From NCBI GenBank assembly GCA_025060455.1, contig JANXBY010000019.1, positions 1,492-65,491 on the forward strand: 64,000 bases of DNA. Direction: 5' to 3'. Within the stretch, counting starts at the first letter, position 1, and each line of letters begins with the position of its first letter. Source of the stretch: Armatimonadota bacterium. GTDB taxonomy: Bacteria; Sysuimicrobiota; Sysuimicrobiia; Sysuimicrobiales; Sysuimicrobiaceae. Shown in pieces: positions 6,258-55,544 of this stretch. The position numbers and the translations under genes were made by a program. A model generated the notes under the pieces. That model did no database searches, was not told the DNA's origin, and worked only from the letters and a program-made list of their open reading frames with translations.

Positions 6258-7210
6258 GCGGCTGGATCCTGGTGGGGCTTCTGGCGGCTGCCCTGGCGGT
6301 GGCGCCCGTGGTACTGCCGCCCTTCTTGCTGTACCTGCTGGCCCTGATCCTGGTGACCGGCCTGCTGGCCACCAGCCTGAACCTGGTGCTGGGCTACGGC
6401 GGGCTGTACCAGTTCCACCACGGGGTGTTCTACGGGATCGGCGCGTACGTGGCCGCGGTGGCCATCACGCGGCTGGACTGGCCGGCGTGGCTGGCGTTCG
6501 CTGCGGGTCCCGTGGCCGCCGCGGCCGCGGGCCTGGTGATCGGGTTCTTCTGCGTGCGCCTCTCGCGGCTGTACTTCGGAATGCTCCAGCTGTCCCTGGG
6601 ATCGTTCGTGTGGATCGTGGCCCTCCGATGGTACCCCGTAACGGGCGGGGACAACGGGATCCACGGCATCCCCGTCCCTGCTGCCCTGCAGAGCCTCCCC
6701 GCCGCCTACGCTCTGGTGGCGGTGGTGGTGGCGGGCTGCCTGGCAGCCCTGTGGGCGGTGGTCCGGTCACCCTTCGGGCTCACCCTGCAGGCCATCCGGG
6801 ACAACCCCCAGCGCTCGGAGGTCATGGGGGTCGACGTGCGGGCGCACCAGCTGGCCGCGATGGTGCTCGCGGCGTTCTTCGCGGGCGTGGCGGGGGTCCT
6901 GTACGTGGCGCTGGAGCGGTCGGTGTTCCCGAACATGCTGTTTTGGGTGCTGTCCCTAGAAATCCTGGTAATGTGCCTGCTGGGCGGGTGGTTCACCTTC
7001 TCCGGCCCCCTGGTGGGTGCGGCGGTGGTGGTGGGGCTGCGCACCCTGGTGGGACGGTACACGGAGTACTGGACGCTGGTGCTGGGCGTGCTGCTCATCC
7101 TCCTGATCTTCTTCCTACCGGAGGGGATCATGGGACATCTGCAGCAGCGGTGGGGTGCGCACCGTACCGTGGCCCCACGGCCGGCCCCCGCGGGGGACGC
7201 CCGTGGCTGA
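6254..7210 (+). CDS. livM: Liv-type ABC permease (LivM-like)
   Basis: SLNLVLGYGG, TGGDNGIHG and SPFGLTLQAIRDN motifs; GTGA overlap with the previous stop. Confidence 0.85.
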   Translation: MSGWILVGLLAAALAVAPVVLPPFLLYLLALILVTGLLATSLNLVLGYGGLYQFHHGVFYGIGAYVAAVAITRLDWPAWLAFAAGPVAAAAAGLVIGFFCVRLSRLYFGMLQLSLGSFVWIVALRWYPVTGGDNGIHGIPVPAALQSLPAAYALVAVVVAGCLAALWAVVRSPFGLTLQAIRDNPQRSEVMGVDVRAHQLAAMVLAAFFAGVAGVLYVALERSVFPNMLFWVLSLEILVMCLLGGWFTFSGPLVGAAVVVGLRTLVGRYTEYWTLVLGVLLILLIFFLPEGIMGHLQQRWGAHRTVAPRPAPAGDARG

Positions 7211-8687
7211 CCTGCTCCGCGTGCAGGACCTGTGGAGGTCCTACGGCGGCTTCCCGGCGGTCCGGGGCGCCTCCCTGCGCGTGGCCGCGGGGGAGGTGGT
7301 GGCCGTCATCGGGCCCAACGGCGCCGGAAAGACCACTCTGTTCAACCTGATCACGGGGGTTCTGCTGCCCGATCGGGGCCGGGTGTGGTTCGCCGGGGCG
7401 GACGTGACCCGCTGGCCGGCCCACCGGAGGTGCCGCGCGGGGGTCGGGCGCACGTTCCAGATCGCCAACGTGTTCCCCCGGCTGTCGGTGTTCGACAATG
7501 TGCACGCCGCCTGCCTGGCGCATGCCCGCAAGGGCTTTGAGCTGCTCCGGGCCGCGCGGCGGTTCGCGGTGGACGAAGCCCGGCGGATTTTGCAGCTCAC
7601 CGGCCTGGAGGCCTACGCGGACCGGCTGGCGGGAACCCTGTCCCACGGTGACCAGCGAATTCTGGAGATCGCCCTGGCCCTGGCCAGCCGGCCGCGGCTG
7701 CTGGTGCTGGACGAGCCCACCGCGGGCATGTCCCCGGAGGAGACCATCTCCACCCTCCAGCTGATCGCACGGCTGAACCGGGAGCACGGGCTGTCGGTGC
7801 TGTTCTGCGAGCACGACATGGAGGTGGTATTCTCTACCGCGCACCGGGTGGTGGTGATGCACCAGGGCCGGACCATCGCCGAGGGGACTCCGGGCGAGGT
7901 CCGCTCCAATCCCGAGGTGCAGCGGGCGTACCTGGGAGGGGAGGAAGCAGAGGCCGCGGAGGCCCGTACGCGGACGGAGCGGTCCGGGGGCCCCGTAATG
8001 CTGGACGTAGAAGGGGTGCACGCGTACTACGGCCTCAGCCACGTGCTGTTTGACGTCTCCCTGCAGGTGCAGGAAGGCGAGGCGGTGTTCCTGCTCGGCC
8101 GGAACGGCGCGGGCAAGAGCACCACCCTGAAGAGCGTGGTAGGGTTGGTCCCGCCGCGGCGCGGGTCGGTGCGGTACCGGGGCCACGACCTGACGGGTCT
8201 TTCCCCCCACCAGGTGGCCCGGTTGGGCGTGGGCTACGTCCCTGATGACCGCCGCATCTTCCCGGACCTGACGGTGCTGGAGAACCTGGAGGTGGCCGCC
8301 CGCGGGACCGGGTACTGGACGTTGGAGCGCGTCTTCGAGCTGTTCCCGGTCCTGCGGGAAAAGCGCCACCACCGCGGCAGCCACCTGTCGGGCGGGGAGC
8401 AGAAGATGCTGGCCATCGCCCGGGCCCTGGTGGGCAACCCGGACCTGCTGTTGCTGGACGAGCCCATGGAAGGGTTGGCCCCGAGGTTGGTCCGCGTGCT
8501 GGAAGAGCGCATCCAGCAGCTGAAGGCCCAGGGGCTGACGGTGCTGCTGGCCGAGCAGAACGTGGCTTCAGCCCTGCGGCTGGCGGACCGCGGCTACGTC
8601 ATCGACGACGGCCGGATCCGGTTCGAGGGGTCGGTCCAGGAGTTGCGGGAAAACCACGAGGTGCGGCGCCGGTACCTGATGGTGTGA
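7203..8687 (+). CDS. Liv-type ABC ATPases LivG + LivF present as one in-frame ORF (second domain starts at ATG 7998)
   Basis: Two Walker A motifs (GPNGAGKT, GRNGAGKS) and two Walker B motifs (LDEP), with no stop between them. Confidence 0.85.
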   Translation: MADLLRVQDLWRSYGGFPAVRGASLRVAAGEVVAVIGPNGAGKTTLFNLITGVLLPDRGRVWFAGADVTRWPAHRRCRAGVGRTFQIANVFPRLSVFDNVHAACLAHARKGFELLRAARRFAVDEARRILQLTGLEAYADRLAGTLSHGDQRILEIALALASRPRLLVLDEPTAGMSPEETISTLQLIARLNREHGLSVLFCEHDMEVVFSTAHRVVVMHQGRTIAEGTPGEVRSNPEVQRAYLGGEEAEAAEARTRTERSGGPVMLDVEGVHAYYGLSHVLFDVSLQVQEGEAVFLLGRNGAGKSTTLKSVVGLVPPRRGSVRYRGHDLTGLSPHQVARLGVGYVPDDRRIFPDLTVLENLEVAARGTGYWTLERVFELFPVLREKRHHRGSHLSGGEQKMLAIARALVGNPDLLLLDEPMEGLAPRLVRVLEERIQQLKAQGLTVLLAEQNVASALRLADRGYVIDDGRIRFEGSVQELRENHEVRRRYLMV

Positions 8688-9600
8688 CCCCGTACACCCG
8701 CGGCCGGGCACTCACCAACGCCACCCCGCCTGCGACGAGCGGCAGCCCCGCGATGGGTTGGGCCCCACAGGCACTCCCAGCAGCAGCCACCCCCACGATG
8801 CCGCGGTGGCCCGGTTCAGGTAGGTCACCAACGCGGTCTGGGTGGGGCTCACGTGGAGCACCAGGTGGTCGCAAAGCAGGTCGCCCACCGCGCTGCCGAA
8901 CACGGACAGCGCCAGAGTGCTCCCACCGCCTCGCGGGACGGGCGCGCCGGCCAGCCGCCGGCGGCCGCGGCCGGGGCCATGGCCAGGGCACCGCCCAGCA
9001 GCGACCCCGCGGCCAGGGACACCGGGCCGGTGCGGGGGAAGGTGCGCCGGGCGTGCAGGATGCCCCACGCGTACAGCGCCGAGGCCAGCACCACCGCCCC
9101 TGCACCCAGGACGTCCGCAGCCCGAGCACTAGCGGGGTCTGCGCCCACCAACCTGACGCCCACACCCAACAGCTTCGGGACCTCCAAGGGCTCGGTGCGG
9201 GTTCCGCCCCCCAGCAGCACGGCCCACAGCGGCGTGGTGGCCTTTTAGGATAGAGGCGGCGCCGCTGGTGATGGTGCGCTCGCCCCACGCGATCAGGCTG
9301 ATGGCCGACACGTGGTGGTGGATCGCCTTCGCGACCGCGCTCGCCCCACGCGATCAGGCTGATGAGATCCCCCGCTGACCGCACCGAGGAACACCAGCCG
9401 GGCCCCCGTGGCGGGGAGGCGTCGGAAGGGTCGGCGTTGCGCTGCCACCACCGCGGCCAGCAACAGGCCGGCAAGGCCCAGCCGCACGGCCACGAGGGTT
9501 GTGGGCGGGAAATCGCCCACCGCCACTTGATCGACAGGTAAGACGTGCCCAGAAGAGGCCCCAGTCCCAGCAGCGCCGCCCAGTCCTTCCGCCGCACCAC
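8684..9600 (-). pseudogene. EamA/DMT-family transporter, multiply frameshifted
   Basis: Fragments in different frames: GTSYLSIK / VGDFPPTTLVAVRLGLAG / SLIAWGERTITSGAASIL / VSPTQTALVTYLN; contains a 61 bp insertion-duplication. Confidence 0.85.
9276..9364 (+). repeat. Exact 28 bp direct repeat (GCGCTCGCCCCACGCGATCAGGCTGATG) flanking a 33 bp unique insert
   Basis: Copies at 9276-9303 and 9337-9364; flanking bases differ on both sides; insert at 9304-9336. Confidence 0.93.
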
Positions 9601-9631
9601 CGTCCCCAGGGCCGGCGCAGGGCGTACGCGC

Positions 9632-11518
9632 TCAGCGGGCCGCCTCCTCCCGGTAATGGGGCAGCTCGTGCGCCCGCAGGTACTCCAGCACCCGGCGGGC
9701 GGCCGCCCGGCCCACCACCGCAGCCACCTCCTCCTCGGTGGCCTCCCGGATGCGCCGGACTGACCCGAAGTGGCGGATGAGGTCGCGTTTGCGCTTCTCC
9801 CCGATCCCCGGCACCTCGTCCAGCACCGAGTACACTACCCGGCGGCCCCGGAGCTGCTGGTGGTAGGCGTGGGCGAACCGGTGCGCCTCGTCCCGGACCC
9901 GTTGCAGCAGCTGCAGGGCCGCGGAGTCCCGGGGTAGGCGCAGGGGCTCCTCCTGCCCCGGCCGGAACACCAGCTCCTCCCGCTTGGCGAGGGCTACCAC
10001 GGGCACCTGCACGTTGTACTCGAACAGCACCTCCAACGCCGCGGACAGCTGCCCGCGACCGCCGTCGATCAGGATCAGGTCCGGCAGCACCGACCACTTG
10101 GGCTTGACGGACTCGTCTCGGTCCAGCCTGTCCTGCTCCTCCCGGGCGTTCTGGAACCGCCGGCGCAGCGCCTCCTGCAGCATGGCGTAGTCGTTGGGCC
10201 CGGGAGTGAACCGGATGCGGAACCGCCGGTACGCGTCCTTGCGGGGCCGCGCGCCCTCGAAGGTCACCAGGGAGGCCACCGCCTCCCCGTGCTGAAGGTT
10301 GCTCACGTCGTAGCCCTCGATGCGGAAGGGCGGCTCTTCCAGGTCCAGGACCTGCTGGAGGGCCCGCACCGCCGCACCCTCGCGCCCGGCGAGGCGTGCC
10401 CGTTCCTGCTCCAGGTGCAGCCGGGCGTTGTCCCGGGCCATATCCACCAGCCGCTTCCGGTGGCCGCGGGCCGCCACCACCACCCGGACCGGGGAACCCC
10501 GGCGGTCCGACAGCCACCGGGCGATCACCTCCTGACCTTCCACAGCCTCCGGGATCACCACCTCCGGCGGCAGGGCTGGTGCGTGCTCGTAGTACTGCTC
10601 CAGAAACGTGCGCAGCACCTCCGCGGTGGGGTGCCCGTGCGCGCCCGTGAGAAAGAAGTGCTCCTGACCCGACAGACGGCCCGCGCGCACGAAGAACACC
10701 TGGGCGCAGGCATCATCGCCGTCCACGTGCACCGCCACCACGTCTCGGTCGTCGAGGCTCGCCGCGGCGGTCCGCTGGCGCTCCGCGATGGCCTCCAGGG
10801 CCTGGATCTGGTCCCGCAGGGCCGCGGCCCGCTCGAACTCCAGCCGCTCGGCGGCTTCCCGCATCTGCTGGCGCAGCTGGTCCAGCAGCGCCTCCTGGTG
10901 GCCCTGAAGGAACAGCACCGCGTTCCGCACCTGCTCCGCGTACTGCTCCCGGGAAGCGCCCCACGCCACGCACGGGGCGGTGCACTGCCCGATGGCGTAG
11001 TCCAGACACGGCCGGGGAAGCCGGGTGTGCTCCACGTCCACCTGGCAGCTCCGCAGTTTGAACAGCTTGCGGATGGTCCGGATGGTCCGGCTCACCAGCT
11101 TCGGCTCGTGGTAGGGGTACGGGCCGAAGTAGTGGGCACCATCCCGGACCACCCGGCGGGTCATCACGATGCGCGGGTAGGGTTCGTGGGTGATCTTCAC
11201 GTACGGGTAGGCCTTATCGTCCGCCATCCGCACGTTGTACTTGGGCCGGTGCTGCTGGATCAGGTTGGTTTCCAGGATGAGGGCCTCCACCTCGTTGGCA
11301 CAGGCCACCACGTCGAAGTCGAACACCTTGGTCATGAGGTGGCGGACCCGCGGGGAGTCCACGGAGGACGGGTTCTGAAAGTAGCTGCGGACCCGCTGGC
11401 GCAGGGAAGCCGCCTTGCCCACGTAGATCACCTTGCCCGCGCGGTCCCGCAGCAGGTACACGCCCGGTCGCGGCGGCAGGGCCCGCAGCTTCTCCTCCAG
11501 GTTGGCCACGCGCGCCAT
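9632..11518 (-). CDS. uvrC: Excinuclease ABC subunit C
   Basis: GIY-YIG domain (PGVYL...YVGKA), UVR domain, RIEGYDVSN, IDGGRGQL, HhH GIG motif. Confidence 0.97.
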   Translation of the reverse strand: MARVANLEEKLRALPPRPGVYLLRDRAGKVIYVGKAASLRQRVRSYFQNPSSVDSPRVRHLMTKVFDFDVVACANEVEALILETNLIQQHRPKYNVRMADDKAYPYVKITHEPYPRIVMTRRVVRDGAHYFGPYPYHEPKLVSRTIRTIRKLFKLRSCQVDVEHTRLPRPCLDYAIGQCTAPCVAWGASREQYAEQVRNAVLFLQGHQEALLDQLRQQMREAAERLEFERAAALRDQIQALEAIAERQRTAAASLDDRDVVAVHVDGDDACAQVFFVRAGRLSGQEHFFLTGAHGHPTAEVLRTFLEQYYEHAPALPPEVVIPEAVEGQEVIARWLSDRRGSPVRVVVAARGHRKRLVDMARDNARLHLEQERARLAGREGAAVRALQQVLDLEEPPFRIEGYDVSNLQHGEAVASLVTFEGARPRKDAYRRFRIRFTPGPNDYAMLQEALRRRFQNAREEQDRLDRDESVKPKWSVLPDLILIDGGRGQLSAALEVLFEYNVQVPVVALAKREELVFRPGQEEPLRLPRDSAALQLLQRVRDEAHRFAHAYHQQLRGRRVVYSVLDEVPGIGEKRKRDLIRHFGSVRRIREATEEEVAAVVGRAAARRVLEYLRAHELPHYREEAAR

Positions 11519-11655
11519 CGCCACCATTCTACGTGCGGAGGACGACCGGAGTCCCCAAGTGGCGCCCTCTGGGCGGTCCGTCGGGGCCGCAGACAGGGTT
11601 GCGCGGCCCGGGTAGACTAGGAGCCAAAGCGGTACGTATGCCAACGGAGGGTTGC

Positions 11656-54704: not shown

Positions 54705-55544
54705 TCACTTGTGGCGTTCCCGCATGGCGGCCACCCGCTTGGGCGGCGGGGAGCCCTCCACCCGCCGGGCGCGCTGCTGCTTGGCCATCTCCAGGCTGCG
54801 GCGCAGCGCCTCCATGAGGTCCACCACCTTTTCCTCCGCGGGCGGCGCCGCCTGTGGGGGCGGGGCACCCTCCGCCTTCGCCCGGATCACCCGTAACAGG
54901 GCCTCCCGGTACTCGTCCCGGTACTCCCCTGGGTGGAACTCCATGGTCATCCCTTCCACCAGCTGCACCGCCATCTTGCGTTCGTTGGGGTGCACCTTGA
55001 CCTCCAAGGGGAACTCCGGGAGGTCTGAAACCGCCCGGATCTCGTCCGGGTAGTACAGCACCTCCATGACCAAGGTGTCCCCGTACGGGCGCAAGGCCAC
55101 CAGGTGTTCCTTCTCCCGCAACGCCACCTTGCCTACACCCACTCGCCCGGAGGACGCCAGGGCCTCCTGCAGGAGCTTGAACGCCTTCGCGCCACCCACG
55201 TCGGGCGCCAGGTAGTACGCCCGCTCGTAGTACAGGGGGTCGATGTCCTGCAGCTGCACGAATCCGAACAGGTCCACGGTGCCCTTCGTGGGCAGGGGCA
55301 CGGACTGCAGGTCCTCGTCGGTGACCGGGACGAACCGTCCCTTCTCGTACTCGTACCCGCGCACCACCTCGTCCCACTCCACGTCCCGCCCGCAGCGGGG
55401 GCAGCGCCGCACCTGCTTGATGGGCGTCAGACAGGCCGCGTGCAGCTGCCGGAACCGAACGTCCTTGGCCTCCTGGGCCACGTACACCCGCACGGGGATC
55501 GTGACCAGGCCGAAGGCAATGTGCCCCTTCCAGATCGGACGCAT
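54705..55544 (-). CDS. ku: NHEJ Ku protein
   Basis: WKGHIAFGLVTIPV, GYEYEKG, YRDEY and VVDLMEALRRS motifs. Confidence 0.96.
   Translation of the reverse strand: MRPIWKGHIAFGLVTIPVRVYVAQEAKDVRFRQLHAACLTPIKQVRRCPRCGRDVEWDEVVRGYEYEKGRFVPVTDEDLQSVPLPTKGTVDLFGFVQLQDIDPLYYERAYYLAPDVGGAKAFKLLQEALASSGRVGVGKVALREKEHLVALRPYGDTLVMEVLYYPDEIRAVSDLPEFPLEVKVHPNERKMAVQLVEGMTMEFHPGEYRDEYREALLRVIRAKAEGAPPPQAAPPAEEKVVDLMEALRRSLEMAKQQRARRVEGSPPPKRVAAMRERHK

Follow-up and report, generated by a model that had tools for sequence, protein, structure and literature searches.

The insertion described here lies within a transporter pseudogene of a metagenome-assembled genome (MAG). We analyzed one window of this genome, a stretch of 64,000 nucleotides that corresponds to positions 1492-65491 of contig C36. 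The assembly comprises 80 contigs and 2.26 Mb at 71% GC, and the MAG is 95% complete. The pseudogene sits between a gene for a fused ABC ATPase and uvrC, and both of these neighbors are intact. A second genome from the same genus (G004) keeps these three genes in this order, and its EamA gene is intact at 314 aa. The features of the locus, in window coordinates, are as follows:

7155-8687, plus strand: fused ABC ATPase gene
About 8599..9600, minus strand: EamA/DMT transporter pseudogene that hosts the insertion, delimited by a tblastn search that used the intact ortholog of G004
9276..9303: target-site duplication copy 1 (28 bp), EamA coding sequence that reads ISLIAWGER on the minus strand; recognized as an exact repeat, by its single equivalent copy in G004 and by the joint in the run contigs described below
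9304..9336: 33-bp insert for which no source was found; unique in the genome and absent both from G004 and from the X1 and X2 run contigs
9337..9364: target-site duplication copy 2 (28 bp), an exact repeat identical to copy 1
9283..9291 in copy 1 and again 9344-9352 in copy 2: CCCCACGCG (minus strand CGCGTGGGG), equal to positions 13-21 of the type I-E repeat of genome G056, in register, on the minus strand
9632-11644, minus strand: uvrC

The ORF at 7155-8687 (510 aa) looks like two ABC ATPase domains fused together, with two nucleotide-binding-loop motifs, and by eye it is of the branched-chain amino-acid transporter type. A 494-aa ORF is conserved in G004. In both genomes, the ABC ORF runs at its 3' end into the EamA frame, with an overlap of about 89 bp.

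We confirmed from the sequence that 9276-9303 and 9337-9364 are identical 28-nt direct repeats with 33 nt between them (9304-9336), for a period of 61. The 28-mer occurs nowhere else in the assembly, and the 33-mer is present once. Given the base composition, 28 matching bases are expected by chance at about 1e-15 per pair, or about 3e-7 pairs genome-wide. The ISLIAWGER peptide has a direct counterpart, IGLIAWGER, in the intact EamA ortholog of G004. In a DNA search against that genome, query positions 23-283 aligned to G004:C9:11177-11440 and query positions 317-909 aligned to 10593-11204. Exactly 28 bp of the G004 sequence fall in both ranges, so that a single 28-mer in G004 stands for the two copies in the MAG, and the 33 bp align to nothing there. 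The alignment to an intact ortholog thus bore out an earlier proposal, made in a first-pass annotation of this DNA, that ordinary EamA coding sequence had been duplicated at a target site. The structure at 9276-9364 is a 61-bp insertion, made up of a 28-bp target-site duplication and 33 bases of foreign DNA.

An empty version of the same site is present in environmental sequence data. The region is carried by one hot-spring metagenome study, and we compared the Logan contigs of two of its runs (X1 and X2, with word depths of 6.9 and 17.3) with the MAG over positions 8900-9800. Each run provided one contig that showed 0 other letters and 0 gaps over 840 flanking bases, except for a joint that connects 9275 directly to 9337. 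This joint skips 61 letters, and the 28 letters of the repeat fit on either side of it. The run contigs have no depth over 9303-9333; that lack is by itself not evidence, but the joint across 9303-9333 is. At k = 31, two words of the empty allele could not have come from the filled allele, which means that the empty allele must be present in the reads. G004 and the empty allele each contain one 28-mer and no insert, which identifies the repeat as a target-site duplication around foreign DNA and the empty site as the ancestral state.

In both runs, the empty-site allele already has five frameshifts in its EamA sequence. The insertion is accordingly very recent and not fixed. The only other possibility, precise reversion of a filled allele through the 28-bp repeats, is less parsimonious. 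These contigs can show the presence of an allele and not its absence, and the MAG itself is the one place where we saw the filled allele; this allele may be a minor or sample-specific variant. The event had been described as fixed in a natural chromosome, a description that the empty site in the contigs of two runs contradicts.

The insertion did not inactivate the transporter gene. A tblastn search with the G004 protein as query placed frame switches near 9526, 9370, 9243, 8913 and 8766, in addition to the 61-bp insertion. Outside the insertion, the run contigs reproduce the EamA region with 0 differences. Since independent contigs reproduce all five frameshifts, they are not sequencing noise, and since the frameshifts also occur in the empty allele, the gene was already dead when the insertion arrived. 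We conclude that the insertion was neutral. The suggestion that CRISPR adaptation acted here as an insertional mutagen therefore does not hold for this gene.

We compared the insertion with type I-E CRISPR arrays from related genomes. A search of 61 genomes (60 relatives and this MAG) with the type I-E Cas1 model, TIGR03638, returned matches over the cut-off in two, G035 and G056, both of which belong to another family of the same order; none of the 11 genomes searched in the same family scored over the cut-off. The G035 array (L019 16359-19457) has a 29-nt repeat that ends in G, and the listed spacings are 61 in 23 of 29 cases and 62 in the other 6. At a contig end in G056, a 29-nt repeat (L021 10363-10391) is followed by a 32-nt spacer and then by the start of the next repeat. 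The spacing of these arrays indicates that 28 + 33 = 61 is type I-E geometry in this order. The proposed type I-E geometry of the unit thus agrees with the arrays of same-order relatives.

The 28-mer shares part of its sequence with these repeats. In register, it matches the G035 repeat at 13/28 positions on either strand and the G056 repeat at 13/28 and 12/28. Matches of this quality are common over the whole repeat: 3.9% of 4.52 million genomic 28-mers match the G035 repeat as well as 13/28, and the whole-repeat tails range from 3 to 8%. The first half matches better. Repeat positions 1-16, read in register on the plus strand, agree at 11/16 for both G035 and G056 (tails of 1.4e-3 and 1.2e-3), in line with the earlier remark that the 5' half of the 28-mer resembles I-E repeats. 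Positions 13-21 on the minus strand agree at 8/9 for G035 and 9/9 for G056 (tails of 9e-4 and 2.65e-5), a window chosen after seeing the data, as were all matching windows other than positions 1-16. The motif in question, CCCCACGCG, has 120 occurrences in the genome. A longer match of 15/20 can be obtained by including four G035 leader bases (TGGT at the leader end), but the G056 leader does not match and we discounted it.

The duplicated sequence does not behave like a CRISPR repeat in other respects. Its folding energy relative to shuffled sequences gave z-scores of +0.57 and +0.75, compared to -3.74 for the G056 repeat, and an Rfam search of the 28-mer returned three chance-level matches, with no CRISPR family among them. 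A 28-mer that has neither a leader nor a repeat hairpin points to a scar and not a working mini-array. The locus had been put forward as a candidate natural neo-CRISPR; it is not a functional neo-CRISPR, and it is not the mutation that killed the EamA gene.

We searched for the source of the 33-bp insert. G or C occupies 11 of 11 third positions (3, 6 ... 33) when the insert is read directly from the sequence, which suggests that it is probably a piece of high-GC coding DNA. The insert does start with G on its plus strand, as the first-pass annotation had pointed out in support of a type I-E prespacer. However, G is also the first base on the minus strand, and a G at the start of both strands is not discriminating in a 71% GC genome where G is common. 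The MAG contains no donor, the best match being 16 nt exact or 22/25. Among 94 genomes of the phylum, a search at up to 3 mismatches recovered the locus itself, with no match in the other 93. Exact searches of viral and metagenome contig collections gave 0 matches, although such collections may leave out this genome and its near relatives, and a pattern with every third base free also gave 0 matches in viral, genome and metagenome collections. Phage and plasmid collections yielded chance-level partial matches only, the best of which (E 0.006, 25/26 bases) falls in a plasmid pgsA gene. No protospacer for the 33-mer, and hence no adjacent AAG-type PAM of the kind expected for a type I-E spacer source, was found in the MAG, the 94 phylum genomes, the viral, metagenome and genome collections, or the phages and plasmids searched.

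We also looked for the machinery that such an event would require. Profile searches of the MAG for Cas1, Cas2 (two families), Cas7e, RAMP, Cas6 and Cas6e gave no match, a genome-wide repeat scan found no CRISPR array, and no MAG sequence lies within 6 mismatches of the G035 or G056 I-E repeat. Cas3_HD gave one sub-threshold match (21.5 bits against a cut-off of 23.1), located at G000 C15:9409-9729 in a 579-aa frame that probably encodes a generic HD-domain protein. The first-pass annotation had itself stated that its reading would be refuted if the lineage lacked type I-E adaptation genes and the insert source lacked a PAM. As far as our searches reached, no type I-E cas1 or cas2 gene scores over the cut-off in this 95%-complete assembly, and no source was found.

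The significance of the missing cas genes depends on how well such loci assemble in this genus. Of the 7 other species of the genus, 2 have cas1; the contigs that bear it measure 3.2 and 2.0 kb, and the arrays are not assembled in those genomes. It would thus be easy for this bin to have missed a cas locus. Taking the incompleteness of the MAG and the unassembled arrays together, the absence of cas genes counts against a Cas1-Cas2 origin, but weakly. One same-genus cas1-cas2 contig, L024 (G006:C56), begins at 1-36 with a candidate that resembles a truncated CRISPR repeat and ends in ...GGGGATTGCGA on the other strand; this pattern has a single occurrence in 8 genomes.

The insertion in EamA is not the only such structure in the assembly. 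Two unbiased genome-wide scans for repeat pairs of this kind recovered 12 pairs in one scan and 9 pairs in the other. Five distinct pairs consist of a unique insert and a duplication, and the remaining pairs are in-frame coding repeats. Across the five units, the duplications measure 28, 36, 37, 38 and 38 bp and the inserts range from 33 to 40 bp. Besides the unit in EamA, they are:

C73:39928-40041: 37-bp duplication, 40-bp insert; splits a permease gene
C72:73837-73952: 38-bp duplication, 40-bp insert; at a gene junction
C52:462-571: 38-bp duplication, 34-bp insert; at a stop codon
C9:4014-4121: 36-bp duplication with one mismatch between copies, 36-bp insert; in frame, adding 24 codons to an aconitase-family gene

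All five units are absent from same-genus orthologs. For the additional four, one target copy and no insert were found in 7/7 same-genus genomes (C73), at least 4/7 (C9), at least 5/7 (C72) and 6/7 (C52). Three of these other inserts had 0 matches in the viral contig collection, and the C73 insert had 0 matches in the genome contig collection. A separate 36-nt near-exact repeat with a period of 78, at G000 C38:4268-4381, lies in a membrane-protein gene where the peptide VVDGLVNLVGW is repeated in frame, which makes it an internal duplication at the protein level and not a foreign insert.

The four additional units bear on both the enzyme and the subtype. The first-pass annotation had suggested looking for other isolated 28-33-28 units in the genome; the scans did uncover more insertions with duplications, but their geometry differs (36-38 bp duplications and 34-40 bp inserts). 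The 36-38 bp targets are unlike the candidate genus repeat from G006. Lengths of 28 and of 36-38 are two common CRISPR repeat-length classes, and the fact that the duplications fall into these classes favors spacer integrases in general. The different geometry of the four units would imply either a second system besides type I-E, and hence two integrases, or one less specific process. A broader reading, which we regard as unlikely, is that a lineage whose assembly shows no cas gene over the cut-off repeatedly took up 33-40 bp of foreign DNA at five unrelated sites with 28-38 bp duplications, at least one of these events being still polymorphic. Such activity would reflect either frequent misfires of adaptation integrases encoded on unbinned or transient elements, or a so far undescribed integrase that works without cas and causes a background of insertional mutation.

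Our preferred explanation is that the 61-bp insertion is the scar of an off-target Cas1-Cas2 integration of any subtype, to which we assign a probability of roughly 0.55. Type I-E Cas1-Cas2 specifically is a tentative assignment that we place somewhat below even odds. In the proposed model, an integrase loaded with a 33-bp prespacer would have attacked the two chromosome strands 28 bp apart, at a site that offers one I-E-like inverted-repeat arm (CGCGTGGGG) at the I-E repeat's distance from the cut. Subsequent gap repair would have left a copy of the 28 bp on either side of the insert. The event would be a recent, strain-specific misfire of Cas1-Cas2, most likely with type I-E geometry. Having landed in a transporter gene that was already dead, the insertion would be neutral.

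The alternative that survives best, though we judge it unlikely, is that one undescribed process independent of cas made all five units by inserting 33-40 bp of foreign DNA with a staggered duplication of 28-38 bp. Under this explanation, the match to I-E geometry at 9276-9364 is a coincidence. Such a process would account for five events where no cas gene of the assembly exceeds the cut-off, for duplication lengths that vary from unit to unit (28, 36, 37, 38, 38) and for 36-38 bp targets that do not resemble the sole candidate repeat of the genus. Against it, the duplication lengths belong to two CRISPR repeat classes, and the unit at 9276-9364 has an I-E-like motif in register. The absence of cas genes from a MAG is in turn weak evidence. 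Apart from Cas1-Cas2, we are aware of no enzyme whose products are 33-40 bp inserts flanked by duplications of 28-38 bp.

We considered whether the MAG assembler could have built a structure that no cell carries, and we find this slightly less probable still. The contigs of two runs from the probable source study lack the 61 bp, and no run contig covers the insert. The ends of the MAG contigs also bear what we read as the mark of MEGAHIT: 66 pairs of contig ends overlap by exactly 141 bp, 4 by 125 and 2 by 40. The 141-bp overlaps suggest MEGAHIT with a maximum k of 141 and could be used to join many of the contigs. The default k list of MEGAHIT includes 29 and 39, and duplications of 28 and 38 bp would equal k-1. 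Against this explanation, the contig overlaps that we observed equal k rather than k-1, and the five duplications include one of 36 and one of 37 bp, which is why we did not adopt an assembler k-mer artefact. In addition, a de Bruijn path that runs from the 28-mer through the insert to the 28-mer requires reads covering both junctions, the 28-mer occurs nowhere else in the genome, and the insert has a coding-like periodicity. De Bruijn assemblers are reported to make unsafe joins at low coverage (PMC9528984), but the artefact, as that source presents it, joins two repeat copies and makes no short novel insert.

Repair of a chromosome break could in principle also give an insertion together with a duplication, and we consider this quite improbable. 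A staggered double-strand break might be filled in and capture a stray fragment through Ku-dependent end joining, or a replication fork might switch templates and return 28 bp upstream. The window encodes a Ku-domain protein at 54981-55514 on the minus strand (PF02735, E 1.5e-49, 286-aa frame), and the organism therefore probably has end-joining repair. However, end joining gives no reason for five events with staggers of 28-38 nt and fillers of 33-40 bp. A template switch requires a donor, and none exists in the genome (best exact match of 16 nt) or in the other 93 phylum genomes at up to 3 mismatches. Templated insertion by template switching or MMBIR was rejected for lack of a donor copy in the MAG's own genome, where the best candidates are those of 16 nt exact or 22/25 noted above. 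A transposon footprint was also tried and rejected on the basis of the ortholog alignment, the search for the insert in its own genome and the run contigs.

Simple slippage that duplicated native EamA sequence has a negligible probability and was rejected: the direct repeat itself is all that speaks for it, whereas the 33 bp are found neither in the G004 ortholog nor in the empty allele, the sequence after the second 28-mer copy is not a second copy of the insert, and 61 is not a multiple of 3.

Off-target spacer integration is a known but rarely seen kind of event. It is a proposed birth route of new CRISPR arrays and a hidden cost of adaptive immunity, and most of its documentation comes from laboratory work with over-expressed integrase. 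A natural case with a filled and an empty allele in one sample set would let the misfire rate, the target rules and the fitness cost be measured in the wild. The 9276-9364 insertion falls short of such a natural test: its filled allele comes from the MAG only, EamA was already dead, and the integrase and prespacer are parts of a model.

We compared the insertion to known products of spacer integration. The canonical type I-E arrays of G035 and G056 and this unit have in common a period of 61, a duplication of 28 nt plus a terminal G, and the arm CGCG(T/C)GGGG at positions 13-21. The real I-E repeats are palindromic (-16.8 kcal/mol, z -3.7), whereas the 28-mer has one arm only and 12-13/28 identities. 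Shmakov and colleagues reportedly described, in 2020, isolated mini-arrays that had arisen de novo from off-target integration. Those cases resemble this one in having a single spacer between two non-CRISPR copies, away from cas genes, in a natural genome. They differ in that a matching cas locus and repeat were reportedly present in the genome itself or in a close one, a link that is absent here.

Off-target integration by Cas1-Cas2 has been established experimentally. The Pyrococcus furiosus enzyme is reported to integrate off-target in vitro at sites with repeat features (PMC6698737). As in our case, its non-CRISPR targets have specific repeat features at a fixed spacing, although that system is of another subtype, has 30-bp repeats and was assayed on a plasmid in vitro (PMC6698737). 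The closest parallel comes from Escherichia coli, where over-expressed type I-E Cas1-Cas2 creates "neo-CRISPR" loci (Nivala, Shipman and Church 2018, Nat Microbiol); according to a citing paper, the same study presents circumstantial evidence of off-target integration in two other species. In that study the integrase is over-expressed and known, whereas here the assembly contains no cas gene over the cut-off in the eight families searched and the insert has no source that we could find. The locus in this MAG also has no hairpin and no leader and is thus not a nascent array. The E. coli loci, as reported, otherwise correspond to ours: a spacer-sized insert, a repeat-length duplication of ordinary chromosomal DNA and a partly repeat-like site, with the same 28 + 33 = 61 bp geometry. 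Those loci were produced by over-expression in the laboratory; the unit described here is a natural polymorphism in an uncultured hot-spring bacterium.
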